A DNA stretch of 60,103 nucleotides, the filler included. It is 8 parts of 8 records of this genome, joined end to end, with 100 filler letters (N's around TTAATTAATTAA, not from the genome) between each part and the next. Parts side by side here need not be neighbours in the genome. Positions count along the whole stretch, not along the records: positions 1 to 8,594 come from SRR31147125_16207; 7 more parts are not named here. The stretch is one strand, 5' to 3'. Numbering within the stretch: the first letter of the stretch is position 1; each line of letters opens with the position of its first letter. The position numbers and the translations under genes are program-made. This document shows, piece by piece, positions 1 to 52,274 of this stretch. The notes beneath the pieces are model-generated. The model was not told the origin of the DNA. It worked only from the letters and a program-made list of their open reading frames with translations, and did no database searches.

Positions 1-4
1 AAAA

Positions 5-82
5 GTTCATCGACGGTGATAGAATCCGTGAAGTATGAAATGGATCCATGAGCCGTAGCAGGGTTTATCGTGCTAGATGAAC
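5..82 (+). repeat. Structured repeat element, copy 1 (P1 GTTCATC/GATGAAC enclosing ACGG/CCGT and TAGCA-N10-TGCTA hairpins)
   Basis: Base pairing read directly from the sequence; 54-82 matches 4510-4538 at 26/29 nt. Confidence 0.7.
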
Positions 83-109
83 AAAAATGTAAAAAAATTG
101 TACAATTAT

Positions 110-154
110 TTGACATGGAAAAAAACAGGCAATATACTGTAAAATAATACAGTA
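110..154 (+). promoter_or_regulatory. Sigma70/SigA promoter TTGACA-17-TATACT overlapped by palindrome TACTGT-N8-ACAGTA
   Basis: TTGACA 110-115, TATACT 133-138, palindrome 135-154; RBS AAGGAGG upstream of ATG 178. Confidence 0.75.
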
Positions 155-177
155 ATTTTAAAAAGGAGGGGTTTTTG

Positions 178-761
178 ATGAAATACGGATATGCTAGGGT
201 AAGCACACCTAAGCAATCTATGTTAAGGCAGATAGGAAGATTAAAAAAGCAGGTGCGGAAATTATAATAGAAGAAGTAGCATCATCAGCTAAGGATAGAA
301 AAAGATTAGAACAACTGTTATATGATATGGAAAAAGGTGATGTACTGATAATTGACAGGATAAGCCGCATGAGTAGAAGCATACAAGATGCAGTAAAAAA
401 GTTTCAGTTACTTCAAGGAAAAGGAGTAGATTTAATATGCTTGGATGGTGGTAAAGTTGATACAACATCAGCGCAAGGAAAATTGTTTTGGCACACTATG
501 GTATTATTCGCAGAGTTTGAACGAGATATGGCGAGTGCTAGGAGCGAAGAAGGACTAAGAGCCAGAAAGGATGCAGGAGTAAAGCTAGGGAGAAGTGAAA
601 TAAATCCAAAGGAAAAAAATGAAATAATTAGACTACACTTAAAGGGATATTCGCCCAAAAGAATAGCGGAAATAACTCATTTAAGTAGACCAACAATATA
701 TAAGTATATAAAAATATACGAAGATAAACAAAAGAAAGGTACTAGCAATGAGAAAAAGTAA
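178..761 (+). CDS. Serine resolvase/invertase (Tn3/Hin family) with a -1 frameshift at 243-249
   Basis: ATG 178 gives MKYGYARVSTPKQ (catalytic YARVS). The -1 frame continues AGAEIIIEEVASS into the ORF with DRISRMSRS, AEFER, GVKLGR and a C-terminal HTH (LSRPTIYKY). Confidence 0.9.
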
Positions 762-2751
762 AGCAAAAACATTTGGGATGATTAGCTTGTTTGTATTAGG
801 AGTGATAGCAATAACATTTCTTTTTACCGTATTAATGCAAATGAAAAGTGGAATATCGCCAAGTGAAACGGATTTTACATTTTCAGTAATGAAAATTTAT
901 AGGGATATACGACACTCATTTGAAGTAGACGAAACAAATAGAACTGTATATATAGGATTTATCCTTGGATATGGAATATTGATTTTTGTATTATTCACTA
1001 ATCATAATTTAGACTTAAACAGATATAATAAATCAACAGGTAAATTTGGTCCTCAGCGAGTGGAAAATGGTGACCACGGAAATGCAAGGTTGTTGCAGGG
1101 AGGAAGAAGTATAAGCAGTGTATTGCATTTGTGGATAACGAGCAATAGACCAAAGAACGTTGGTTTAGTGTATGGAATGCATAAAACTTTATTTGGAAAA
1201 GAAAAGATATGGACAGTGGGGGATGATATTCATAATCTGGTAATTGGTGCTACACGTTCTGGTAAATCAAGAAAATTGATACTACCAACAATTTGGGCGA
1301 AAGGTCAAACAGGCGAAAGCATGGTAATTACTGACCCAAAAGGAGAGTTGAAAATATATACAGCGGATTATCTTAAAAGCAAAGGCTATGAAATAGTTTT
1401 ATTGAATTTGAGAGATACAAACATATCAAATACTTTTAATCCGATGGAGAGAGTTAATATACAAGTGAGAAAGCATGATGCGATTAAAGCAAAGGGTGAT
1501 GTCGAAAATTATGATAAAGCCACTGACCATATGGCAAGAGCAATGAAACACGCAGATGAAGTAGCACACGCTTTAGTTGTGCAAGAAATGAAAGGCTCAA
1601 AGCCTAACGATTCATTTTGGGTAGATATGGCAAAGGCTGTTATAGCATCAGTGATATTGTATGTAGCAATCGAAGCACCAAATGAGAAAGTTAAAAATCT
1701 AAGAACAGTAAGATATATAATAGGTGAATATGGTGCACCGGATGAAGATGACCATATTAAGCTATATGCAATGATGCAGAACTTACCAGATGACCATCCT
1801 GCAAAAATGGTTTGGATAACAGTGAATTTAGCAGAGGGCAGAACAAGAGTTGGTATATTTTCGCAGGCAATGAAAATATTGCAGATATTTGCATATCCTA
1901 ATGTATCAAAGGTAACATGTATTCAAGACCATAACCTTGATGATATTGTAAAGAAACCGACAGCAGTATTTTTAGTTGTGCCAGATGAAAGTCCTATATA
2001 CAATGTTCTTGCAACTTTGTATGTAGACCAGTTATACCAAAACACTGTAGAACTTGCAAATCAAACAGGTAATAGAGCTGAGAGAAATGTAAATTTTCTG
2101 TTAGATGAATTTGGTAATATGCCAAAGATACCAGACTTTGAAAAGAAATTGACTATTGCAGGCGGACGTGGTTTACTATTTTCTTTGTTAGTGCAGGATA
2201 TACAACAAATCGAGGCTATCTATGGTAAAGGTCAGAATACTATAATGGGTAACTGTCATACTTGGGTATATTTAAAATCAGCTGATGTTAAAACAGCAGA
2301 TACAATATCAAAAAAATTAGGTAACTACACAATTCTAAAAGAAAATCAAGGTAGTAGTATGTCTGGAGCAATGATGCTTAAAACACAATCAACAAGTTCT
2401 GTTAATTATACAACAGCCGCAAAAAAAATATTGGACGTAGAACAAGTGTTAAGATGGGATGTTGATGCAGACGGAGTATTAGTAATGCAAATAGGTAAGT
2501 ACTCTTGTGTTGTACCTGCACCAGATTTATCTAAATACCAAGCAAATAAGGATTTTGGATTAGGTGATATAAATCATAATATAAGAACAATAATGGAGAG
2601 AACAGCAAGAGAATCCATGAATAAAAAAAATAATGTTATTACTGAATTATGGGATGGTGGAATGGGTGAACAGATAATTGATTATAATTACGATGATTAT
2701 GATTTGGAATTTAAGGTAGATATAAGAGATGCAGTTGATAGATTTTACTAA
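748..2751 (+). CDS. virD4: Type IV secretion coupling protein (VirD4/TraG family)
   Basis: Two N-terminal TM segments, Walker A GATRSGKS, ITDPKGEL, FLLDEFGN, QDIQQIEAIYG. Confidence 0.93.
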   Translation: MRKSKAKTFGMISLFVLGVIAITFLFTVLMQMKSGISPSETDFTFSVMKIYRDIRHSFEVDETNRTVYIGFILGYGILIFVLFTNHNLDLNRYNKSTGKFGPQRVENGDHGNARLLQGGRSISSVLHLWITSNRPKNVGLVYGMHKTLFGKEKIWTVGDDIHNLVIGATRSGKSRKLILPTIWAKGQTGESMVITDPKGELKIYTADYLKSKGYEIVLLNLRDTNISNTFNPMERVNIQVRKHDAIKAKGDVENYDKATDHMARAMKHADEVAHALVVQEMKGSKPNDSFWVDMAKAVIASVILYVAIEAPNEKVKNLRTVRYIIGEYGAPDEDDHIKLYAMMQNLPDDHPAKMVWITVNLAEGRTRVGIFSQAMKILQIFAYPNVSKVTCIQDHNLDDIVKKPTAVFLVVPDESPIYNVLATLYVDQLYQNTVELANQTGNRAERNVNFLLDEFGNMPKIPDFEKKLTIAGGRGLLFSLLVQDIQQIEAIYGKGQNTIMGNCHTWVYLKSADVKTADTISKKLGNYTILKENQGSSMSGAMMLKTQSTSSVNYTTAAKKILDVEQVLRWDVDADGVLVMQIGKYSCVVPAPDLSKYQANKDFGLGDINHNIRTIMERTARESMNKKNNVITELWDGGMGEQIIDYNYDDYDLEFKVDIRDAVDRFY

Positions 2752-3050
2752 GATTGTGATTTTAAATAGTTATTAAACAAATCATTGTTTTTAAGTTTTA
2801 GGGGAATTTTATATTCCCCTTTAGTTTTGTCATATTTAATATGTATTATTACAGCTGATATTGGACAATTCAAAATATTGCAAATATCATCTAATAGGTG
2901 AATTGGTATTCTTTTTAGAGTATTATTGCACAAAGCGTTAATAGAGGCATAGCGAACTGGCTCGGCTGAATTTTCGTTAATCATCATCCAAAGTTTCTTT
3001 TGCGAATAGCCTTTTTTTTGTAGTTCGTTTTTAAGCGTGCAATACATCAT
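2748..3050 (-). CDS. Xre/Cro-C1 family HTH regulator
   Basis: LKNELQKKGYSQKKLW...YASINALCNN...LDDICNILNCPISAVI; likely start ATG 3050. Confidence 0.8.
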   Translation of the reverse strand: MMYCTLKNELQKKGYSQKKLWMMINENSAEPVRYASINALCNNTLKRIPIHLLDDICNILNCPISAVIIHIKYDKTKGEYKIPLKLKNNDLFNNYLKSQS

Positions 3051-3057
3051 GTATAAA

Positions 3058-3086
3058 ATAATAGCGTAAATGATAACAAAAGTCAA
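3058..3086 (-). promoter_or_regulatory. Promoter TTGACT-17-TATTAT, 7 nt before the repressor ATG
   Basis: Minus strand reads ttgact tttgttatcatttacgc tattat tttatac ATG. Confidence 0.6.
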
Positions 3087-3234
3087 AACCAAAAATACGT
3101 TTAAACAGTAAAAATATGAGATATTCTAAAAGATTGTTGGTTTATAAAATATTTAACATTTTTATATACAAATATGATATATTGTGATATAGTAAAAAAG
3201 AACGTTTAACGTAATTTTTGCAAGGAGATATATA

Positions 3235-3537
3235 ATGATATTATCAAACTTAACTAGCATTTTAAACAAGGTATATTTAAGCGTCGTGATGCTTGCAGTA
3301 GAAGAACCAGAATTTGTAGGTAAATTAGTACAAATGATGGAAGATTCGAGAGGTTATATAATGACTATCGGCGGCTCTGCGCTGGGTACAGCAACGGCAG
3401 TAATAGGAATATACATGGGATTTCAAAGAGATCCACAAAAGAAACAGGGCGCAAGAGGATGGTTTATTGGGTGTTTGATTGGGGCTGTAGCATCACTTAT
3501 AGGACCAGACTTAATAATATGGCTTATGAGTTATTAA
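3235..3537 (+). CDS. TrbC/VirB2-like pilin-type small membrane protein
   Basis: Two hydrophobic helices separated by a basic loop (RDPQKKQGARGW); first gene of the T4SS cluster; RBS AAGGAG. Confidence 0.7.
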   Translation: MILSNLTSILNKVYLSVVMLAVEEPEFVGKLVQMMEDSRGYIMTIGGSALGTATAVIGIYMGFQRDPQKKQGARGWFIGCLIGAVASLIGPDLIIWLMSY

Positions 3538-3551
3538 GGTAGTATTAGAGA

Positions 3552-4469
3552 ATGAAATTTGATTGGATAAGTGATATTGTAAATTCAGTCCTTCAATGGA
3601 TATTTAATGCCGTAGTGGATTTTATAATGCCTTTTTTGGAGGTTACTTGCAGTCTTAATACAGAAATATGGGAAATTGCTTTAATAGAAGATGGATTGCG
3701 ATATTCACAAATATTAGCAACATCAATATTAACAGCAAAAGTATTATATGAATTGTTTATGACCTATGTTGTAAGAAAGGGCGAAGACCCTGCAGGTGAC
3801 CCTATGCATAAAGTAATGAGTGCGGCATTTGCTACATTTGTAATATGGATAATACCAGAGTTGGTAGAGTTTATGGCGAACTTTGGAAACAGCATTGTAA
3901 GAGATATAGGAATAATAAATTCTGATACATTTGACAAATTTGACAATATTAGAAGTAACAGTTTAATACAAGATGCAATTTCAACAGCTTGGAATGGAAT
4001 AATTGATACAGGCGGTATCATGGGTATACTTTTCTCATTAGTTATGATAATTGTATTGCTCGTAGCATATTGTATAATTTCGTTCCAGTTAATAAAGCGT
4101 TCTGTTGAACTAATGTTATTTGCATTAATCGGTCCGTTTTTTGCTCTTTCATTGACCAAGGATGATTTTGGTCCTATGAAAGAGTGGGGTAAAAAACTGA
4201 TTTTATTATGTACTTCCCATGCAGTACAAATATTTCTTTTCCGATTATCATTGCAAATGTTATTTGGTGGAGCAAACGGATATAATCAGTATTTTGCAGG
4301 CACATTATCATCACTAGCGTTATATTTGTTTATAATGGCAGTTGCAATTTTCGCTATAAATGTACAAGGGTTTATAGGAAAATTATTAGATGCGGCTAGT
4401 CCGACTGGAAGTTTCACACAGAAAGCTTTTACAGCCGCACAAATAAGCAGAATGATGAAAAGAAATTAA
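3552..4469 (+). CDS. VirB6/TrbL-like polytopic T4SS membrane protein
   Basis: Multiple TM helices; RSVELMLFALIGPFFALS...WGKKL pattern; T4SS context. Confidence 0.8.
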   Translation: MKFDWISDIVNSVLQWIFNAVVDFIMPFLEVTCSLNTEIWEIALIEDGLRYSQILATSILTAKVLYELFMTYVVRKGEDPAGDPMHKVMSAAFATFVIWIIPELVEFMANFGNSIVRDIGIINSDTFDKFDNIRSNSLIQDAISTAWNGIIDTGGIMGILFSLVMIIVLLVAYCIISFQLIKRSVELMLFALIGPFFALSLTKDDFGPMKEWGKKLILLCTSHAVQIFLFRLSLQMLFGGANGYNQYFAGTLSSLALYLFIMAVAIFAINVQGFIGKLLDAASPTGSFTQKAFTAAQISRMMKRN

Positions 4470-4475
4470 TGATAA

Positions 4476-4540
4476 GAGTTTGTCATCGGTTAGCATCTGA
4501 TAAGCAAATCGTAGCAGAATTTATCCTGCTAGATGAACTC
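4476..4540 (+). repeat. Structured repeat element, copy 2 (three-way junction)
   Basis: GAGTTTGTC/GATGAACTC, ATCGG/CTGAT and TAGCAG/CTGCTA stems. Confidence 0.7.
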
Positions 4541-4554
4541 GTAAAGGAGTATAT

Positions 4555-4785
4555 ATGAACAACGCAACACCAAGTTTTATAGCAAACTTTGATTCACCTT
4601 TAAAGATATTATTAGGAACAGGATTAGCGATGGTACTTGTATGGAACTCAATTAAGTTAGGTATTAATTGGAACACAAATGAAAAACCCAAAATAGCAAG
4701 ACAAATATTCGCAATAATCATGGCGGCAATTGCGGCAGTCATAACACCAGATGTGGTTGACTGGGTTGAGAGGATTATGCGATGA
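4555..4785 (+). CDS. Second VirB2-like small two-TM protein
   Basis: Two hydrophobic helices and a basic loop; ends ITPDVVDW, resembling IGPDLIIW of 3235-3537; RBS AAGGAG. Confidence 0.6.
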   Translation: MNNATPSFIANFDSPLKILLGTGLAMVLVWNSIKLGINWNTNEKPKIARQIFAIIMAAIAAVITPDVVDWVERIMR

Positions 4786-5264
4786 ATAGTGAATATATGT
4801 ATATATGTCCAGTGGATGTTTCAACGAGGACAGAAATATTTAAGGGGTTTGGGTTAAGAGAAATGAAAAGGTTAGCTATAGTAGCCTTTGTGTTCTTAAT
4901 TCCATATTGGTTATTAGGTATTCCAAAGACAGTAAAATATGAGGAAGTTCCTGTAGATAGTCAGCAAATAGAAATGACTTATGATGAAAACGGTGAAAAC
5001 TTAGATATTGAAAAAGAACTAAACAGTGAAATAGAACAAGAAGAACTTTTAAATTCTGATGAAGTGCCAACAGAGGAAGTAGCTGTAACAGTGGATTTAA
5101 TACCTGCAAATCAGAGGATAATGCTTGTGATAATACCTGTTGTAATAACTGTTTTATTATCATTACCATTGATGGGTAGAGTAAGCGGATTCACATACAT
5201 AGGATATATAATCAAATTTAAAAGGATGCGGAAAAGATATTATTTTGAAAGGATTAAATATTAA
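4782..5264 (+). CDS. PrgI/VirB3-like membrane protein
   Basis: YICPVDVSTRTEIFKGFGLREM N-terminus, two TMs, basic C-terminus; directly upstream of virB4. Confidence 0.7.
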   Translation: MNSEYMYICPVDVSTRTEIFKGFGLREMKRLAIVAFVFLIPYWLLGIPKTVKYEEVPVDSQQIEMTYDENGENLDIEKELNSEIEQEELLNSDEVPTEEVAVTVDLIPANQRIMLVIIPVVITVLLSLPLMGRVSGFTYIGYIIKFKRMRKRYYFERIKY

Positions 5265-5267
5265 ACT

Positions 5268-7796
5268 ATGCAAGAATTATTAGGATTTGGAAAAAAACAA
5301 AACTATACCATTGAGAAAAATACAGCAGACCTAACTGGAATTAGAGATATTTTTGATGGGATTGTATATAAAACGGATAAAAGTCTTCAAACAATAATAT
5401 CTGTATCACCGATAAATATGTCACTAATGACCGACAAGGATATGGATGCTTTAGGTGCTAACTTAACAGCATCTTGGAATAGAGAAGAAAAAGGCTTTGA
5501 AATATTTTCTATAGGTAGAAGTGTAGACCTAGACGAGTATATAAAAGGAATGCAAGGCATGATTGATATAGGCGAATTATCAAAGCCTAAAAAAGACCTG
5601 TTGCAGGACTTGATAAATAATGCAAACAACTTAGCATTGAGGGGAGATATTAATTCTCGGCTATATTATATAATTTTAATTCAAGAGGGAATGGGGGATA
5701 AATCAATAGATTTATTAAAAACTCGAACAGATGATTTTGTAAGAGCATTGAAACAGTTTGGAGTTGATGCAGAGCAATTAATTGACGATGAAATAACTAG
5801 ATTATTTATGCTCTTTGCAGATGATTTTGTTTCAACTCAACTTCCTTCAGATAAAGAACGCTTAGGTATACCGATGATTGACCAAAGTTCATTAGAGTAT
5901 AATCCGGAAAAAGCATATAGAGATGAAAACAAAACTAAAATAGTGTCAACAAATAAGAAAAAGAAGAAACCAGAAGTGGTAAAAGTTGATGCAGAAAATG
6001 AAAAGCGAAACGGCAGAATATTGAATATGATAGCCGCAGATGGTATTGAATTTGGCGAAGTCAATTTCATTATGGGTAATAAAAGATGCCAAGTTATCAC
6101 AATAGAAAGTTATCCTACTAGTGTTCCTATAGGGTGGTTAACAAATATTACTACACTCCAAAACACAATTACTAAAATAAATATTAAAGTTACACATCCA
6201 GACACAATGATAAATGGATTGAATAGGTCGGTATCTGAATTTATGGTTCGTGCCGAAAGAAGTAACAATCAACTTGATAAAATGTTGAATGAAAAAGGTG
6301 TTGAGGATGCACAGGAACTCTTAAAACGGATTAGCTTACAAAATGAAAAAGTTACTTATGTAACTATCACAATATTAATAAAAGCTGACACAGAAGAAGA
6401 TTTAGTTATTGAAAGAAAAAGGATTGAAAGCCTGTTAGCGGCAAAGAGTATCAGACCGAAAGAACTAACATTTAGACAAAAAGATGCTTTTCACTCAGTC
6501 GCTCCATATGGTAGATTATCAGAAGATTTACTTGAACATTATGGCAAAAACTTGCCAATGTCCACTATTGGAGCATCATTACCGTTTTCAGACGCAGGAA
6601 TTAATGATATTACAGGCACATTCTTAGGTAAGGATGCGGCAGGTGGTATCGTCCTTATTGACATGTGGAAAAGAACAAAAAAAGTAAAAGACAGAAACAA
6701 TCGAAATTGGTTGGTACTTGGTCAGCCCGGCACAGGCAAATCTACGACTATTAAAATGATTGCTATGCAAGAATGTGCTAAAGGTGCTACGGTGCTTGTC
6801 CTAGACCCAGAGAAAGAGTACCTAGACATATGTAATTATTTTAACGGTCAAGTTATTAATCCAATGACAGCAGAGGGACGTATAAATCCTTTTGAAATAA
6901 AGGACGATTTAGAGTATTTTGAGGAAGATTTGGCTAAAAAAGGCGAAAATGCCGAGCAAAGAAGTCATTTAGCTACTCAAATGCGTAGTTTAAGGACGTT
7001 TTTCAAGCTATACATGGACTTAAACGAAGAAGAAATCTCTTATTTAGAAGAAATTATCGAAAATGTTTATGAAAAATGCGGTATAACATGGGATACAGAC
7101 GTTAAAAAGGTGCGAAAAGAGCAATATCCAGTGATGATTGACCTGTATAACGAGATAAAAGACCGTATAAAAGCCGAACCAGATAACAAAAAACTCGAAA
7201 AATTAAGAGTTTTAGTGAGAAAAGCGGCTAAAGGTGCAGATAAAGAAATGTTCAACGGTCATACAAACGGTAGACTAGAGGCAGATTTTATTGATATAAA
7301 CCTTTCTGACCTGCACGAGGCAGATGCATCCATTAAGAGAACACAGTATTATAATGTACTGTCTTGGTGTTGGTTGCAAGTCCAAAAGGCAAGAGAAAAA
7401 GGAAAGAAAATTTTCTTATTAGTAGACGAGGCTTATTTGCTTGTGGATAAAGATAATCCAGAGGCATTAAAGTTTTTAATGGCGGTATCAAAGCGTATAC
7501 GTAAATATGGTGGTGGTTTAATGGTTATATCCCATAGTGCCGTAGACTTCTTAGAAGTTGGTAGAGAGGGTAGAGCGTTATTATCAAATCCTACATATAA
7601 GGTAATAATGGGGCAAGACGGACAAGACTTAATAGACCTAAAAACATTTTTTAAGCTGACAGGAGCGGAAGAAACATTAATAGAAAATAAAGCACAGGGT
7701 GAGGCAGTATTTATGTGTGGTAGCAAAAGAGTACACCTTAAAGTGCTACCAACACCGTATATGCTTGATGTTATGGGAACGGCAGGGGGAAAATAG
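5268..7796 (+). CDS. virB4: VirB4/TraE-like conjugation ATPase
   Basis: Walker A GQPGTGKS, VLDPEKEY, INPFEI, Walker B LLVDEAY, KRIRKYGG. Confidence 0.93.
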   Translation: MQELLGFGKKQNYTIEKNTADLTGIRDIFDGIVYKTDKSLQTIISVSPINMSLMTDKDMDALGANLTASWNREEKGFEIFSIGRSVDLDEYIKGMQGMIDIGELSKPKKDLLQDLINNANNLALRGDINSRLYYIILIQEGMGDKSIDLLKTRTDDFVRALKQFGVDAEQLIDDEITRLFMLFADDFVSTQLPSDKERLGIPMIDQSSLEYNPEKAYRDENKTKIVSTNKKKKKPEVVKVDAENEKRNGRILNMIAADGIEFGEVNFIMGNKRCQVITIESYPTSVPIGWLTNITTLQNTITKINIKVTHPDTMINGLNRSVSEFMVRAERSNNQLDKMLNEKGVEDAQELLKRISLQNEKVTYVTITILIKADTEEDLVIERKRIESLLAAKSIRPKELTFRQKDAFHSVAPYGRLSEDLLEHYGKNLPMSTIGASLPFSDAGINDITGTFLGKDAAGGIVLIDMWKRTKKVKDRNNRNWLVLGQPGTGKSTTIKMIAMQECAKGATVLVLDPEKEYLDICNYFNGQVINPMTAEGRINPFEIKDDLEYFEEDLAKKGENAEQRSHLATQMRSLRTFFKLYMDLNEEEISYLEEIIENVYEKCGITWDTDVKKVRKEQYPVMIDLYNEIKDRIKAEPDNKKLEKLRVLVRKAAKGADKEMFNGHTNGRLEADFIDINLSDLHEADASIKRTQYYNVLSWCWLQVQKAREKGKKIFLLVDEAYLLVDKDNPEALKFLMAVSKRIRKYGGGLMVISHSAVDFLEVGREGRALLSNPTYKVIMGQDGQDLIDLKTFFKLTGAEETLIENKAQGEAVFMCGSKRVHLKVLPTPYMLDVMGTAGGK

Positions 7797-7936
7797 TTTC
7801 AATGCTTATTACTTAATAAAATGGTGTTTGTCGTCATGGTTTGATTAATAAGAAAAGTAATTATAATGGATTCAGCACCTTGTCAACTTGTTTGGCCGAC
7901 AGCTGCGGATTCCATTAGATAAATAAAGGAGAGAAC

Positions 7937-8518
7937 ATGAATAAATTTGAGTTTGAAAAAAACAACGAGTATATTAATGGTGCTTTATCAAGTTTGGATA
8001 ATACGAAGAAAATGCTAACATATATAAAAAATGAACAGTATGTAGAATTTTTAAAGCATTACAAAATTAATGATACTGACTATGAAGTATTTCATAGTGC
8101 ATACTTTTCTAGTAATGGTATTAATGATTCTTATTATGAATTACCGTATACGTTGTTGAATATACTTCTTGCAAATATTAATATAGAATTACCTGTTTTT
8201 TACAACGAAGATAAAATAATAGCATCCTATCAAGGAATAAAGCTTGCTACGCTTAATATAAAGTCAAGGAAATATATAATCAATAACTATTCTTTGAAAA
8301 CAATTTCCGATAAGTTAAGTAAAGTTAATACACTTCTCGAAGATATTAAACATAAAGTATATTCTCGAAGATATGACAAAACAGTAGCAAAATACTTAGC
8401 TAACATACCATATTATTTCGATGAAATAAAACTTCCTGTAAAAGAATTTAATGCAAAGATTGAAGAATTAAAAGCTATATACAATAAAATTGGATACGAG
8501 GAAGTTACAGAACTGTAG
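7937..8518 (+). CDS. Hypothetical protein
   Basis: 193-aa ORF with strong RBS AAGGAG; no recognised motif. Confidence 0.7.
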   Translation: MNKFEFEKNNEYINGALSSLDNTKKMLTYIKNEQYVEFLKHYKINDTDYEVFHSAYFSSNGINDSYYELPYTLLNILLANINIELPVFYNEDKIIASYQGIKLATLNIKSRKYIINNYSLKTISDKLSKVNTLLEDIKHKVYSRRYDKTVAKYLANIPYYFDEIKLPVKEFNAKIEELKAIYNKIGYEEVTEL

Positions 8519-8594
8519 AAATGGAATTAATAACAATTGAGTGTGCCAGCACAATTTATTTGCCGGCACAGGAATGATTAAGTTATCGAATAGT

Positions 8595-8694
8595 NNNNNN
8601 NNNNNNNNNNNNNNNNNNNNNNNNNNNNNNNNNNNNNNTTAATTAATTAANNNNNNNNNNNNNNNNNNNNNNNNNNNNNNNNNNNNNNNNNNNN
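8595..8694. other. Artificial contig spacer (also at 14046-14145, 23926-24025, 29860-29959, 37448-37547, 44605-44704, 52175-52274)
   Basis: N runs flanking TTAATTAATTAA (stops in all frames); composition changes across spacers. Confidence 0.98.
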
Positions 8695-13931: not shown

Positions 13932-14399
13932 AAAACCGGAAGGACGAGACACACCAGGCCACGACAGAAATGTTTCTCTGATCGCTCGGAGATTTCATCC
14001 CCGGGCGAGCCGAACGATTGTGCCAGTGGAACTCATGGATAAAAANNNNNNNNNNNNNNNNNNNNNNNNNNNNNNNNNNNNNNNNNNNNTTAATTAATTA
14101 ANNNNNNNNNNNNNNNNNNNNNNNNNNNNNNNNNNNNNNNNNNNNGTGTATTTCATGCTGCTGCTCTCCGGCCTGGTCGCCGATACGGTGAAAATTGCTG
14201 CGGGATACGACGCAGAGGCCGCAGCGCGTAGTGGCACCCAGCCACCCCCGCGGCCTTCCACGGACTATGAGATGGGAGAGGTGTTGTTTTCCGAGAGTCG
14301 GCGGGGACAGAATGATTTTCGCCAAATACGCGAAGAAAATTCAGTCCCCATCAGGTTATAAGGGCCGGCCCCATAAGGTGGGCGGGAACGAGTCGTCTG

Positions 14400-15965
14400 C
14401 TATTTTGCGTATTCGACGGCCCGGGTTTCGCGGATTACGGTTACCCGGATCTGGCCCGGGTAGGTGAGTTTCTCTTCAATGGATTTGGCGATATCCTGGC
14501 TCAGTAGGACCGCGTCGCTGTCCTTTATCGAATCCGAATTTGCTATAATACGCAATTCCCGGCCTGCCTGGATGGCATACGTCTTGTCCACCCCGTCGAA
14601 CGCGTTGGCGATCGCCTCGAGATCTTCGAGACGCTTCACATAGCTCTGGAGCATCTCCTTTCTTGCCCCGGGTCGCGCACCGGACAGCGCATCGGCAGAC
14701 TGTACGAGAATATCGAGGACGCTGAGAATCGGGACATCCTCGTGATGAGCGCCGATAGCGTAGGCGATTTCCTCCTGCTCACCATATTTTTTAGCCAGAT
14801 CCCTGCCGATAATGGCGTGCGAGCCCTCGACCTCGTGATCCACCGCTTTACCGATATCATGCAACAGCCCGGCCCGTTTCGCCAGCGTCACATCAAGGCC
14901 AAGTTCAGCCGCCATCACACCACACAGGAATGCTACCTCGAGCGAGTGCTGGAGCACGTTCTGACCGTAGCTGGTACGATATTTCAAACGTCCCAGAATC
15001 TTGATAAGTTCGACGTGCACGCCGTGTGCACCAACATCGAAGGTAGCCTGCTCGCCGGCTTCCCGCATTTCGATATCCAGATCCTTCGTAACCTTTGACA
15101 CCACCTCCTCGATACGGCCGGGATGAATCCTGCCGTCATTGATGAGCTGGAGTAGTGCGAGTCTTGCGACTTCACGGCGCACCGGGTTGAAACCTGAAAG
15201 GATAACCGCCTCCGGCGTATCGTCGATAATGATATCGATACCGGTAGCAGCCTCAATTGCACGGATATTACGGCCCTCGCGGCCAATGATCCGCCCTTTC
15301 ATCTCGTCGGACGGAAGCGGTACCATTGATACGGTTTTATCCGCCACATAGTCCCCCGCATAGCGGGAAATGGCCAGCGCGATAATATTTTTCGCCTTTC
15401 GGTCGGCCTCGATTTTCATCTCATTTTCGATCATCGCCAACCGCTTGGAAGCCTCCATCCGCGCCTGGCTCTCCAGCGTCGCCAGCAGCATCTTCTTGGC
15501 CTCCTCCTGACTGACCCCGGCTATCCGCGACAATTCGTATCGCTGCTTGCCGATCAGGTTGTCAACCTCCTTGTGCTTGTCCTCTATCTCATGCTCACGT
15601 CTGGCCAGCGTTTTCTCTGTTGCCTCCTGGTCACTGCGCTTCCGATCGAAATTACTCCATTCCCGCTTCAGCTGGTCCTGGTTTTTCTTGAGCTGCTGCC
15701 GTTCATCCTTCAACTCGCGGCGGTCTGCTTTCAGCTCTTCTTCAGCGGTCTGCTTGACCTGATACGCATCTTCCTTGCTCTGCAGCTGGGCTTCTTTTTT
15801 CAGCTGTTCGGCTTCGACGATGGCGGTCTCTATCAGTTGCCGGGCCTGCTCCTTGATATTCTGTCTATGACCTTCAATAAAGCGTTTCCTGAGGAAAAAA
15901 CCGAGCATCACGCCCAGCAGCAAGCCGGCTGATACGAATATGGAGGGGTGGTTCAATAGGTCCAT
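14400..15965 (-). CDS. rny: Ribonuclease Y
   Basis: N-terminal TM, coiled coil, KH ([12 protein letters not shown]), HD (LLHDIGK), ends ETRAVEYAK; likely start MDLLNHP with GAGGA RBS. Confidence 0.97.
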
Positions 15966-16397: not shown

Positions 16398-16570
16398 TAT
16401 TTCCCCACCCTGCCGTGTCTGCAGGACAAGTTAAACCTATCGAAATAGGTGGGATCCGCGTATCAATTTCTGACAAGTCGGAAGACCTGTCATCCACTGA
16501 AAGTGGTAGATCCCTTTTTTTGAGAGTTGGCTCAACAACACTACAAATCACCAACAGCGCAGGGAAAAGC
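16398..16570 (-). ncRNA. ssrS: 6S RNA
   Basis: Rod-like pairing: CCCTGC...GCAGGG termini, TTGAGCC/GGTTTAA and GGGATC/GATCCC flanking a central bubble; canonical position downstream of zapA; ends approximate. Confidence 0.85.
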
Positions 16571-17670: not shown

Positions 17671-18159
17671 CTATCTCACAAAAGTCCACGACAGTGGTCG
17701 GTTGTTCCGGTACGGCATGTAACCGTGAAAAATACGCGTGTCTTCATCGAACACAAGGGGCAGGAAATATCTGTCTCCTTCCCACATCGGCAGCTCCAGC
17801 AACCTGTCGATATCGTGCCACAGCAATCTTCCTTCCTCATTCGATTCGAACGGGATACCACTGAATTTGTCTATCCGATAGATAAAACCGAACCAGTCCT
17901 CCCCCTGCGGACCGAATCCCGTCCAGTTGATGGTCCCCCGCAATACGACATCTTCGCAGATAATACCTGCTTCCTCTTTGATCTCCCGGCATATGCAGTC
18001 ATGGATGCTCTCTTCAGACTCCATCTTTCCCCCGAGACCGTTATATTTACCGAAATGAGAATCGTTTTCCCGTCCGTTGCGATGGACCAGAAGCGTCTGT
18101 TTCCGATCTTCTGAAATCACATAGCCAAGCGTTGCCAGAATTGGAGTATACACAGTCAC
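17671..18159 (-). CDS. NUDIX hydrolase (8-oxo-dGTP diphosphatase-like)
   Basis: GGKMESEESIHDCICREIKEEAG Nudix box; LPMWEGDRYF. Confidence 0.9.
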   Translation of the reverse strand: MTVYTPILATLGYVISEDRKQTLLVHRNGRENDSHFGKYNGLGGKMESEESIHDCICREIKEEAGIICEDVVLRGTINWTGFGPQGEDWFGFIYRIDKFSGIPFESNEEGRLLWHDIDRLLELPMWEGDRYFLPLVFDEDTRIFHGYMPYRNNRPLSWTFVR

Positions 18160-20737: not shown

Positions 20738-22197
20738 ATGGCTCTCACACCGAAAACTGAAGAAGTACAGGCTCAATCAGCAACAAAGACATTCGCGCTT
20801 TTCACGTGGGCCGACTCGGTCTCGCCGGAGGATCCGACAGTTGTTCGCTGGCTCCGGAAACTCGTCCGGATCGTGTTGATCTGTTTCAGGGAAATAAACA
20901 ACAACGTACTCACCATCCGGGCCGGATACCTCACCTACGCGATCCTCCTGTCGATGGTTCCGATGCTGGCAATGAGCACCGCAGTTGTAAAGGGCCTTGG
21001 AGGGGGGATCAACTCAGGGAAGTGGTCTACACCTACATCGATTCACTCGAGAGTTCCGCCGGTCTCGTTACAGAGAGCGTACCGCCGCCGGATCAGGGCA
21101 CACCCGACCCCGATTCGCCAGCACCTTCAGCCGGAGGCATGATCGGTCACCTCAGGTCCGCAGTCGATCAAATATTCGATTACGTTGACCGAACCAATTT
21201 TGCAACCCTGGGAACATTCGGCATGGTCGGTATTTTCTTTTCGGTGATCATGGTGCTTGGCCAGGTGGAAAAATCACTCAACGTGATCTGGAAAGTCCGC
21301 AACGGCCGGTCGTTTCTGCGCAAGGTCGCCGACTATCTGGCACTGATGATACTCATGCCGATCTCGTTGAACGTAGCGCTCGCGGCCGGCACCATGCTCG
21401 GGAGTCAGTCCCTCAACGTCCATGTCGACCGGTACCTGCCCGTTGCCTGGATCCAGACACTCCTGCTGAAGGGCGTGCCGATCGTGGTGCTCTCGTTTAC
21501 CCTCTACATCGTCTACATTTTCTTCCCCAACACGAAGACTCAGGGAAAGTCGACGATGATCGGCGCACTGGTCGCCGGCACCGGCTGGTTCATCACCCAG
21601 AATGTCTACATCAACATGCAGATCGGCGTATCGAAATACAACGCGATATATGGGTCCTTCGCAACAATTCCGCTGTTTCTTGCCTGGGTCTGGGTCGGCT
21701 GCCTGTTCGTATTGATCGGTGCCCAGATCGGCTACTCAATTCAATCGGAACCCACCTACCGGTTTATCGCCCGGACGCCCCGTCCGGTATTGCAGATCAG
21801 TGCTGCCCTGGATATCTGCGCACTGGTCGGGAGGCGATTCAGCGATATGCAACCTGTTTTTGCGACTGACATTGTTGAACAATGCCCGGGGTACAGCAAG
21901 GACGTGCTTGACGAGGTCTTCAAAGAGCTGATTTCAAATGACATCCTGCACCTCAAGGCGGACACCAATGAGATTATGCCGTCACTGCCTCCCGAACTCC
22001 TGGGCAGCCGCAAAATCGTTGAAACCGTTATGGGCAGGGATATGCCGGATACACCGGGGGGGCGAACCACCTTTCAGGCGATGGGCGGTATGGTCGAATC
22101 ATTTCCGGATCACGCCGACCAGAAAACAGAGAAGCCCCCGAAAAACGAGGGTGCAGAGACCGACAAGCCGGAACAAAGTAGTGAAGAGGGAAGATAG
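20738..22197 (+). CDS. YihY/BrkB family membrane protein, frameshift in G-run near 21002-21007
   Basis: RAGYLTYAILLSMVP in the first frame; YNAIYGSFATIPLFLAWVW in the second frame. Confidence 0.85.
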
Positions 22198-23768: not shown

Positions 23769-24026
23769 AAATCCTCAACGCTTCCACAGAAATCCCCTCT
23801 CTGAAATTATTTCACACCGCCGCGTAAAAGTCCAACGACCAGATGCCCCTGCGGGAAACCGGAACGAGGACCAGCAATAAAATGTAATACCTCTGCGGGG
23901 GAACAGCAAATGCGGGTATCGGATCNNNNNNNNNNNNNNNNNNNNNNNNNNNNNNNNNNNNNNNNNNNNTTAATTAATTAANNNNNNNNNNNNNNNNNNN
24001 NNNNNNNNNNNNNNNNNNNNNNNNNG

Positions 24027-29859: not shown

Positions 29860-30006
29860 NNNNNNNNNNNNNNNNNNNNNNNNNNNNNNNNNNNNNNNNN
29901 NNNTTAATTAATTAANNNNNNNNNNNNNNNNNNNNNNNNNNNNNNNNNNNNNNNNNNNNTTTTTGAGGAAAAAAGAGGCTAACAATTCAGCTACAAGCTA
30001 GTTTTT

Positions 30007-37162: not shown

Positions 37163-37548
37163 CAAATAATATCCTGTTAACCTGTTATTGTTACATCATT
37201 GCTTGACATCAAAAATTCAGTTCGGAAAATGACAAAATTGAACGGAATAACAATCATAATTTCATTCATTCTTTCAATAACGAATCTAATACACAAAAAA
37301 AAATATTGTAACAGGAAACAAATGGCATGATACCACTCCTTTCCTATAAAACATTCTTATCAAAGCAATTTTTAGTAAATTTACTACAACCTAACAGACA
37401 CCATTATAACTATTGATAGCGTTGATGTGTCGCTTTTATCTAAAAAANNNNNNNNNNNNNNNNNNNNNNNNNNNNNNNNNNNNNNNNNNNNTTAATTAAT
37501 TAANNNNNNNNNNNNNNNNNNNNNNNNNNNNNNNNNNNNNNNNNNNNC

Positions 37549-44604: not shown

Positions 44605-44704
44605 NNNNNNNNNNNNNNNNNNNNNNNNNNNNNNNNNNNNNNNNNNNNTTAATTAATTAANNNNNNNNNNNNNNNNNNNNNNNNNNNNNNNNNNNNNNNN
44701 NNNN

Positions 44705-52174: not shown

Positions 52175-52274
52175 NNNNNNNNNNNNNNNNNNNNNNNNNN
52201 NNNNNNNNNNNNNNNNNNTTAATTAATTAANNNNNNNNNNNNNNNNNNNNNNNNNNNNNNNNNNNNNNNNNNNN

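Follow-up and report, generated by a model that had tools for sequence, protein, structure and literature searches.

What are the two related palindromic elements that punctuate the conjugation genes of contig SRR31147125_16207, and do they act as RNA, as single-stranded DNA or as duplex crossover sites? The contig makes up positions 1-8594 of the window, i.e. the whole stretch of 60,103 nt that was analysed, and the element is confined to this first piece. It carries genes of a Gram-positive-type type IV secretion system (T4SS); all coordinates are collected in Table 1. The original prediction, made from the letters alone, had left three hypotheses open: a cis-acting RNA, a single-stranded DNA hairpin of the kind found in repetitive extragenic palindromic (REP) sequences or at the ends of IS200/IS605 insertion sequences, and a hix-like crossover site of the adjacent serine recombinase. 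On sequence grounds the element is real; its job is unproven, and the evidence consists of two copies in one 8.6-kb contig. The first of the three hypotheses is the one to which we lean.

The two copies are direct repeats spaced 4456 nt apart, both sense-oriented and located in spacers between same-strand genes. A 29-nt block is identical at 26 positions, in agreement with the original prediction; it is the sole such pair within the window, and 100 dinucleotide-preserving shuffles yielded 0 matches. The 5' arms are homologous too, AGTT..TC..CGGT.A being common to both copies in their alignment, and the units are therefore ~78 and ~65 nt long. Homology stops sharply at the 3' arm, the sequences beyond the two junctions being unrelated. 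Copy 1 lies 96 nt upstream of the serine recombinase gene. The window begins 4 nt before it, and its left edge is thus out of view; a public contig of the same sample reaches 309 nt further upstream. Copy 2 begins 7 nt past the trbL stop codon and finishes 2 nt ahead of a free ribosome-binding site (RBS), so that its predicted position between the virB6 stop and the RBS of the second pilin gene is confirmed by the gene calls. The segment between the copies comprises the resolvase, virD4, repressor, pil1 and trbL genes.

Folded as RNA, both copies adopt the same three-way junction, as had been anticipated: a closing stem, P1, is followed by the hairpins P2 and P3, with 0-2 unpaired bases at the junction. 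The stem and hairpins of the anatomy first described hold, the "AAG linker" does not, AAG sitting inside the P2 loops and not in a junction linker. Between copies, P1 and P3 are near-identical, and P2, although divergent in sequence and 44 nt long in copy 1 vs. 25 nt in copy 2, closes at the same position. The minimum free energy of the RNA is -25.3 kcal/mol for copy 1 (z -3.6; 0/200 shuffles as good) and -20.2 kcal/mol for copy 2 (z -2.7; 1/200 shuffles as good); folded as DNA, the copies reach -11.2 and -8.9 kcal/mol, respectively. Helix probabilities on the + strand are 0.90-1.0 (copy 1) and 0.84-0.99 (copy 2) for RNA, 0.72-0.97 and 0.45-0.72 for DNA. On the - strand, P1 and P2 of copy 1 form with probabilities of 0.94-1.0 and 0.55-0.69; in copy 2 the values are ~0.4 for P1 and 0.04 (RNA) or 0.27 (DNA) for P2. 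As modelled, the common three-way junction is robust in both copies on the + strand only, and best as RNA.

The differences between the copies point to the same strand. The change from GTTCATC to GTTTGTC in the 5' arm alters 2 of 7 P1 pairs on one side and breaks none, giving U-G and G-U on the + strand. Altogether there are four stem substitutions, all transitions (C-G to U-G, A-U to G-U, G-C to G-U, U-G to U-A), which remain paired on the + strand and leave an A-C mismatch on the - strand; the two in P1 come from the pair count, the two in P2 from manual reading of sequence and fold. By hand arithmetic, and given transitions, the probability that 4/4 favour one strand is ~1/16. Both the top-strand bias and the retention of G-U pairing on that strand only, as originally predicted, are upheld by the pair count, the pair-preserving changes and the helix probabilities. 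By manual reading, moreover, the conserved UUAUC of the P3 loop could pair with stretches of the P2 region, GAUAG at 18-22 in copy 1 and GAUAA at 4499-4503 in copy 2. P3 and P2 might thus touch loop to loop in both copies, though the complementarity could be chance.

How the element came to lie in the operon was monitored in 88 related loci (metagenome or viral), gathered with a VirB4 alignment and showing 30-45% best-segment identity. The order VirD4, pilin, TrbL, small gene, PrgI-like, VirB4 is kept in 29 of them. TrbL and the next gene are no more than 20 nt apart in 25 of these 29 syntenic relatives, vs. 85 nt in the window, and the element is absent from all 88 loci by covariance-model search. 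Copy 2 thus appears to be a lineage-specific insertion into a normally tight junction, as TrbL and the next gene abut in 25/29 syntenic relatives. The VirD4-pilin-TrbL stretch keeps the ancestral order of the 29 relatives, which speaks against an origin of the intervening segment as an inserted cassette.

No known family accounts for the element. At gathering thresholds, Rfam 15 matched the whole window only at a 6S RNA, and neither copy was hit; at E <= 10, positions 1-8590 gave two weak matches to eukaryotic families elsewhere, none at the copies. The statement that the element is not a known riboswitch or ribozyme is in line with these scans, which rule out both identities; a tRNA-like identity is ruled out by ARAGORN, which finds no tRNA or tmRNA. 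Exact-pattern scans of viral, genome and metagenome contig collections returned 0 matches, and a looser 16-base pattern 5 matches in viral contigs, none with the upstream TAGCA arm or the P1 arm, which we take as chance. No match to plasmids was obtained by blastn with the 8-kb region; with the elements alone, only chance-level matches to plasmids and phages were found (19-34 nt, E 0.6-9). A covariance model built from the two copies retrieved only those two in 1.55 Mb (related loci plus window), the next hit having E ~5; the homologues envisaged in the original prediction did not emerge there. The sequence family is new. Elements of the kinds to which it might belong have been described, but it matches none of them in both architecture and placement.

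A co-transcribed intercistronic RNA structure, serving processing or stability, is the best single reading of these data, unproven and held at somewhat less than even confidence. In its favour we weigh that both copies are sense-oriented and lie between cistrons, that the fold of copy 2 is robust specifically as RNA, and that the stem substitutions are of the wobble type only. The element would be a lineage-specific duplicated insertion of ~65-80 nt, co-transcribed with the transfer genes and acting as RNA. Each copy would fold into a compact three-way junction between cistrons of a polycistronic sense transcript; an endonuclease would cut the A-rich single-stranded stretch just 5' of the junction, and the junction would then block 5' exonuclease from the mRNA lying 3' of it (pil2-prgI-virB4 or resolvase-virD4), 3' exonuclease from the mRNA lying 5' of it (pil1-trbL), or both. 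Neighbouring T4SS subunits would in this way no longer be tied to each other in amount. The repeat, the common fold with its strand bias, the location between cistrons and the lack of the element in relatives are established by the data, from which we infer transcription through both copies, together with a cleavage or stabilising effect. No + strand intrinsic terminator is predicted at either copy, nor is any terminator predicted between copy 2 and pil1-trbL or pil2; a weak - strand call at copy 2 (4531-4512) is not shared by copy 1.

A precedent is found in Clostridium cellulolyticum, where intergenic processed sites with stem-loops set the subunit transcript ratios of multiprotein complexes (PMC4423207). 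Like the element, the cip-cel stem-loops are sense-RNA intercistronic structures, lineage-specific and situated at gene ends in operons for multi-subunit machines; as described in PMC4423207 they appear to be simple hairpins, with mapped processing sites, whereas the element is a repeated three-way junction with a conserved loop. The related T4SS loci have a structure of their own: a GC-rich hairpin with a T-rich tail occurs in 6/6 folded pilin-to-TrbL gaps, and looks like an attenuator or stabiliser. This terminator-like hairpin follows the first pilin gene; the window lacks it (the gap is 14 nt) and has the junction after trbL instead.

Several observations weigh against the RNA reading. There are only two copies, and no homologue was found in any collection searched. 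No base pair is changed on both sides (two sequences were compared, and the shuffle control was uninformative), hence support for the predicted fold comes from thermodynamics and one-sided changes and not from covariation. The contig's strongest promoter (110-138) is downstream of copy 1, which would be part of a messenger RNA only given read-through from an unseen operon further upstream. For simple stabilisation, both the three-way junction and the 26/29 block with its conserved loop would be superfluous, and this pattern suggests sequence-specific recognition by a protein. Lastly, a 9-mer equal to part of the putative nick core of the relatives would be, on the RNA reading, a coincidence with a chance of ~0.002-0.008, as estimated from background counts.

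This last point introduces the main rival, according to which the element is a + strand single-stranded branched hairpin that presents or adjoins a MOBP-type nick core and is recognised by a HUH relaxase, as at an origin of transfer (oriT). We regard it as unlikely, yet as the alternative most deserving of attention. An accessory protein would possibly read the variable P2. The copies could be working secondary origins, mimics from another plasmid lineage, or decayed duplicates, and the expected + strand cut is at TTATCCTG/C. A relaxase starting at one copy and ending at the other would delete or release the 4,456-nt resolvase-virD4-trbL segment.

The comparison rests on a module found in the related loci. 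In an 88-locus census, GCAGGATAAG, the complement of CTTATCCTGC, is the top non-RBS, GC-containing intergenic 10-mer. Of CTTATCCTGC there are 21 instances, spread over 21 loci, and every one of them (21/21) is on the template strand; an alignment of 10 related loci shows no variation in it, and in 18 loci a hairpin with a GGCNNTGCC apex precedes it. All 18 composite sites carry that hairpin, which shows compensatory changes at 4 of 8 pairs. The module consists of the GGCNNTGCC-apex hairpin, usually a TGTGT spacer, usually a second variable hairpin, and then unpaired CTTATCCTGC. In loci where the relaxase gene was identified, a MobL-type one, the core is upstream of it. We take the module as the putative oriT of the related MobL-type loci. 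The tested oriT of pWBG749, with its GGC-TTT-GCC hairpin and CCTTAT core, is similar.

Nine of the 10 CTTATCCTGC bases are present in copy 2, as TTATCCTGC, and 8 in copy 1, its TTATCGTGC being changed at a C invariant in all 10 aligned relatives. The strand bearing the core is the one favoured by the wobble pairs, and, as in the relatives' module, same-strand hairpins lie 5' of the core. The core also fits the consensus (C/T)ATCCTG(C/T), exactly in copy 2 and imperfectly in copy 1; this is the MOBP nick consensus needed for cleavage by RP4 TraI and VirD2 (PMC3772185). The coincidence is suggestive, not decisive. TATCCTGC is present 6 times in the window, and 88 times in 2 x 1.49 Mb of loci, 21 of these being cores. 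A profile of the relatives' oriT retrieves copy 2 at E 3.3, and two sites in coding regions are as good or better (E 0.48 and 3.1). The GGCNNTGCC-apex hairpin present in the relatives' composite sites is absent from positions 1-8594, and the copies likewise lack the TGTGT spacer. The core is on the sense strand in both copies, not on the template strand as in the relatives; it is taken up in the stem and loop of P3, not left unpaired beyond the hairpins on their 3' side, and nothing is shared 3' of the junction. Copy 2 folds poorly as DNA. No relaxase gene was found on the contig or elsewhere in the window (tblastn, E >= 0.3; Pfam scan). The MOBL prototype pLS20 is nicked on the template strand, beside an inverted repeat (PMC5313138), and the conserved block bears no resemblance to that nick region. 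A core 3' of the junction on the - strand (CTCTTATCA, 4467-4475) was considered and dropped, as the string is made up of the stop codons that follow trbL, and the window does not reach the corresponding position at copy 1.

The closest structural parallel is the oriT of pWBG749 (record NC_013327, locus L089), whose family goes with the MOB_MG/MobP2 relaxases of Firmicutes plasmids (PMC4652767). This oriT is also a three-way junction, with the inverted repeat (IR) IR1 as closing stem and the hairpins IR2 and IR3 beside the core; it is of similar size and DNA stability, -13.5 kcal/mol vs. -11.2 and -8.9 for the copies. The element has the branched hairpin of pWBG749-type oriTs, IR1-IR2-IR3 with a variable IR2. 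In the family, IR2 varies while IR1, IR3 and core are near-identical, which is the pattern of P2 vs. P1 and P3; several oriTs with different IR2 are possible on one plasmid, and the oriT lies in a spacer inside a same-strand conjugation cluster (PMC4652767). Unlike the element, pWBG749 has its core, CTTATGCTCTT, unpaired directly 3' of the junction; the element has no CTTATGCTCTT, carries a core-like 9-mer in P3, and lacks the GGC-TTT-GCC motif of IR2. Two-oriT Staphylococcus aureus plasmids never have both oriTs on one strand, as the two copies are, which is ascribed to relaxase-mediated deletion (PMC4652767). Since relaxases delete between direct oriT repeats (PMC4902927), same-strand oriT pairs are expected to be unstable.

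A bolder version likens the copies to the borders of transferred DNA (T-DNA), in that two same-strand cores of the (C/T)ATCCTG(C/T) type, exact in copy 2, flank a defined segment. T-DNA borders are simple 25-bp repeats without a branched hairpin. In the present case, the flanked segment includes T4SS genes that are essential, and the core of one copy is imperfect. There is a slim chance that a MobL/MOBP-type relaxase uses the copies as same-strand nick sites comparable to such borders, each displayed on a branched hairpin with a specificity-setting variable arm; after cutting at TTATC(C/G)TG/C in both, the 4,456-nt resolvase-virD4-repressor-pil1-trbL segment would be set free or lost as a single-stranded circle.

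Rather improbable is a third explanation, by which the element is a selfish or neutral small repeat, resembling a miniature inverted-repeat transposable element (MITE), a REP or an IS200/IS605 end, placed in two tolerant spacers with no role in transfer, its palindromes serving a transposase. Absence from the 88 related loci and the long gap after TrbL look like insertion, the outer 7-bp inverted arms resemble terminal repeats, and the sharp end of homology at the 3' arm fits as well. A MITE is recognised by terminal inverted repeats plus a target-site duplication; the 7-bp arms are present, but the flanks (AAAA/AAAA for copy 1, AAGA/TCGT for copy 2) give no consistent duplication. None of the 9 open reading frames (ORFs) of the contig is a transposase by Pfam, and no further copy was found in the other 51 kb of the window or in the contig collections scanned. 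Stem changes that preserve pairs on one strand, and a P2 that is still a hairpin, suggest selection on the fold. Strand-specific folding, direct orientation and intergenic location are shared with the hairpins of REP sequences, associated with RAYT transposases, and of IS200/IS605, which differ from the element in that here there is no Y1 transposase gene on the contig, there are two copies only, and the hairpin is branched. Nor is a cleavage tetranucleotide pattern recognisable in the element. The single-stranded DNA hairpin hypothesis of the original prediction gains an unforeseen clue, as a relaxase nick-like core lies in the hairpin; of IS200/IS605 or REP features none was seen, there being no Y1 transposase on the contig and no more copies in the window or the collections scanned.

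The proposal that the copies are hix- or res-like crossover sites of the adjacent serine recombinase, which would excise resolvase-virD4-repressor-pil1-trbL as a switch, draws on the proximity of copy 1 to that gene, on a 20-bp imperfect dyad (TAGCA...TGCTA) with a T-rich, non-palindromic centre in the shared block, on the direct orientation, from which deletion would result, and on a homopolymer-length difference in the recombinase gene between two assemblies of one sample. The gene is frameshifted in the window at an A6 run (243-248); a public contig from the same sample has A7, which restores the frame, and the difference is either an assembly error or homopolymer-length heterogeneity. Known hix and res site I sequences are ~26-28 bp long, and a crossover site should be an imperfect dyad of ~26-30 bp, bound by a dimer, to which conservation is confined. 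The 20-bp dyad, with arms of 5-6 bp, is too short. On one side, the conserved stretch goes 7 nt beyond it and finds its pairing partner in an arm 50-60 nt further upstream, and the divergent P2 keeps pairing; neither would be anticipated for a site that works as duplex. No accessory sub-sites with a similar sequence are present, the palindromes by the recombinase promoter (97-106 and 135-154) are better candidates for its operator or res sites and have no partner near copy 2, and excision would remove essential T4SS genes kept in the ancestral order of 29 relatives. Among sequencing runs, none of RNA was listed for the stretch; a junction joining ~65 to ~4521 was absent from the assembled contigs of one DNA run covering it, probably its source, in which rare forms would be invisible. 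The excision hypothesis is very improbable and is not supported.

The earlier gene calls (resolvase, virD4, repressor, pilins, virB6) agree with the Pfam annotation of the contig. The best identity of VirB4 is 46% among 1.84 billion representative proteins; an initial search of the genome contig collection with VirB4 found nothing, and a word-based search with TrbL, covering proteins of 167-534 residues, gave no match. Among plasmids, those of Bacillus thuringiensis come closest, with identities of 26% for TrbL and 32.5% for VirB4. VirB4 is a single 842-aa ORF in the window, and is split into ~205-210 aa and ~610 aa in L011 and L041; database matches to it are mostly ~600 aa long, aligning to residues ~250-842 only. 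At the pil2 position a gene of 73-115 aa is found in 25 of the 29 syntenic loci, the one tested (L011, 9265-9489) being weakly pilin-like. The gene before VirD4 encodes a MobL-type relaxase in L011 and L004, an actin-like segregation protein in L010 and L001. Between the repressor gene and pil1, in the divergent region, ACGTTTAA occurs twice (3097-3104 and 3202-3209) and marks possible operators.

Upon self-BLAST of the 88 loci for repeated intergenic hairpins, a clear multi-copy family was seen only in L038, L039 and L041; the other repeats inspected, 11 pairs or sets in 8 loci, are terminators, palindromes or coding repeats. The L041 repeat is present in 3-4 direct copies, each a long hairpin (stem ~25-35 bp) with an asymmetric conserved apex, ...CTGTACTGCGAAGCAGATCACAG..., and covarying lower stems; those of L038 and L039 are similar, and none matches Rfam. 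The L041 apex contains GCGAAGC, a very stable DNA mini-hairpin. In L039, a near-identical, consensus-like promoter, TTGACA...TATAAT, recurs three times, each after a small GC hairpin (3763-3796, 14074-14107 and 18035-18067).

The window is made up of eight contigs joined by N(44)-TTAATTAATTAA-N(44) linkers, and a "122-nt repeat family" returned by the repeat search corresponds to these linkers. The G+C content is ~33% in piece 1-8594. Since it varies from 31 to 54% across pieces, these may come from more than one replicon or organism. The 6S RNA (Rfam RF00013, 72.6 bits) is on another contig, at 16398-16568 on the - strand.

Table 1. Coordinates of the element and of other features, given in the window unless a related locus (L) is named
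Feature	Position	Strand	Basis or remark
Element copy 1	5-82	+	~78 nt; conserved block 54-82
Copy 1 helices	P1 5-11/76-82; P2 13-17/52-56, inner helix 24-29/40-45; P3 57-60/71-74	+	RNA folding
Nick-core-like motif TTATCGTGC	65-73	+	P3 loop and 3' arm, copy 1; one mismatch to relatives' core
Element copy 2	4476-4540	+	~65 nt; conserved block 4510-4538
Copy 2 helices	P1 4476-4484/4532-4540 (two G-U pairs); P2 4487-4491/4507-4511; P3 4512-4517/4526-4531	+	RNA folding
Nick-core-like motif TTATCCTGC	4521-4529	+	P3 loop and 3' arm, copy 2; 9/10 bases of CTTATCCTGC
Palindrome ATTGTACAAT	97-106		Near recombinase promoter; sequence inspection
Best sigma-70-like promoter of contig, TTGACA-17-TATACT, 11/12	110-138	+	Between copy 1 and resolvase gene
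Palindrome TACTGTA-N6-TACAGTA	135-154		Overlaps -10 of 110-138 promoter; sequence inspection
Small serine recombinase (Resolvase + HTH_7)	178-761	+	Pfam
VirD4-type coupling protein	748-2751	+	Pfam
Cro/C1-type HTH protein (HTH_26)	2748-3092	-	Pfam
Terminator-like hairpin 3' of virD4	2800-2820	+	Terminator prediction
Small pilin-like membrane protein (pil1)	3235-3537	+	T4SS_pilin match weak, under Pfam cut-off
TrbL/VirB6 family protein (TrbL_4)	3552-4469 (stop 4467-4469)	+	Pfam
Second small pilin-like protein (pil2)	4555-4785 (ATG 4555, RBS 4543-4549)	+	Weak T4SS_pilin match
PrgI/VirB3-like protein	4782-5264	+	Weak match
VirB4-type ATPase	5268-7796	+	Pfam
Contig linkers	8595-8694, 14046-14145, 23926-24025, 29860-29959, 37448-37547, 44605-44704, 52175-52274		Window
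Putative oriT module (18/88 loci)	L001, L004, L006, L008, L009, L011-L014, L018, L020, L023, L027-L030, L066, L075; e.g. L004 2722-2800	- (L004)	
Post-pilin hairpins	L001 8346-8432, L009 8668-8729, L010 8291-8337, L011 8320-8406, L015 7667-7733, L016 4271-4320		
L041 repeat copies	~3505-3580, 8420-8497, 15540-15620, 21240-21315		One between pilin and TrbL genes
Split VirB4 ORFs	L011 9935-10567 + 10578-12416; L041 9947-10564 + 10581-12413		

If its function is at the RNA level, the element would be a transplantable module, a compact three-way junction that sets subunit ratios in a Gram-positive-type T4SS operon, a class of operons in which post-transcriptional control has been little studied. 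If it is a relaxase site, oriT-like structures would lie on the "wrong" strand inside a transfer operon, and core transfer genes could be deleted or released between a pair of them, with implications for the decay of conjugative into mobilisable elements. Were the copies border-like nick sites, they would provide a relaxase-driven switch of self-transmissibility, or a T-DNA-like mobilisable cassette, in a Gram-positive-type conjugation operon. The conserved module formed by the hairpin and CTTATCCTGC in 18 of the 88 related loci may by itself help to annotate such elements.

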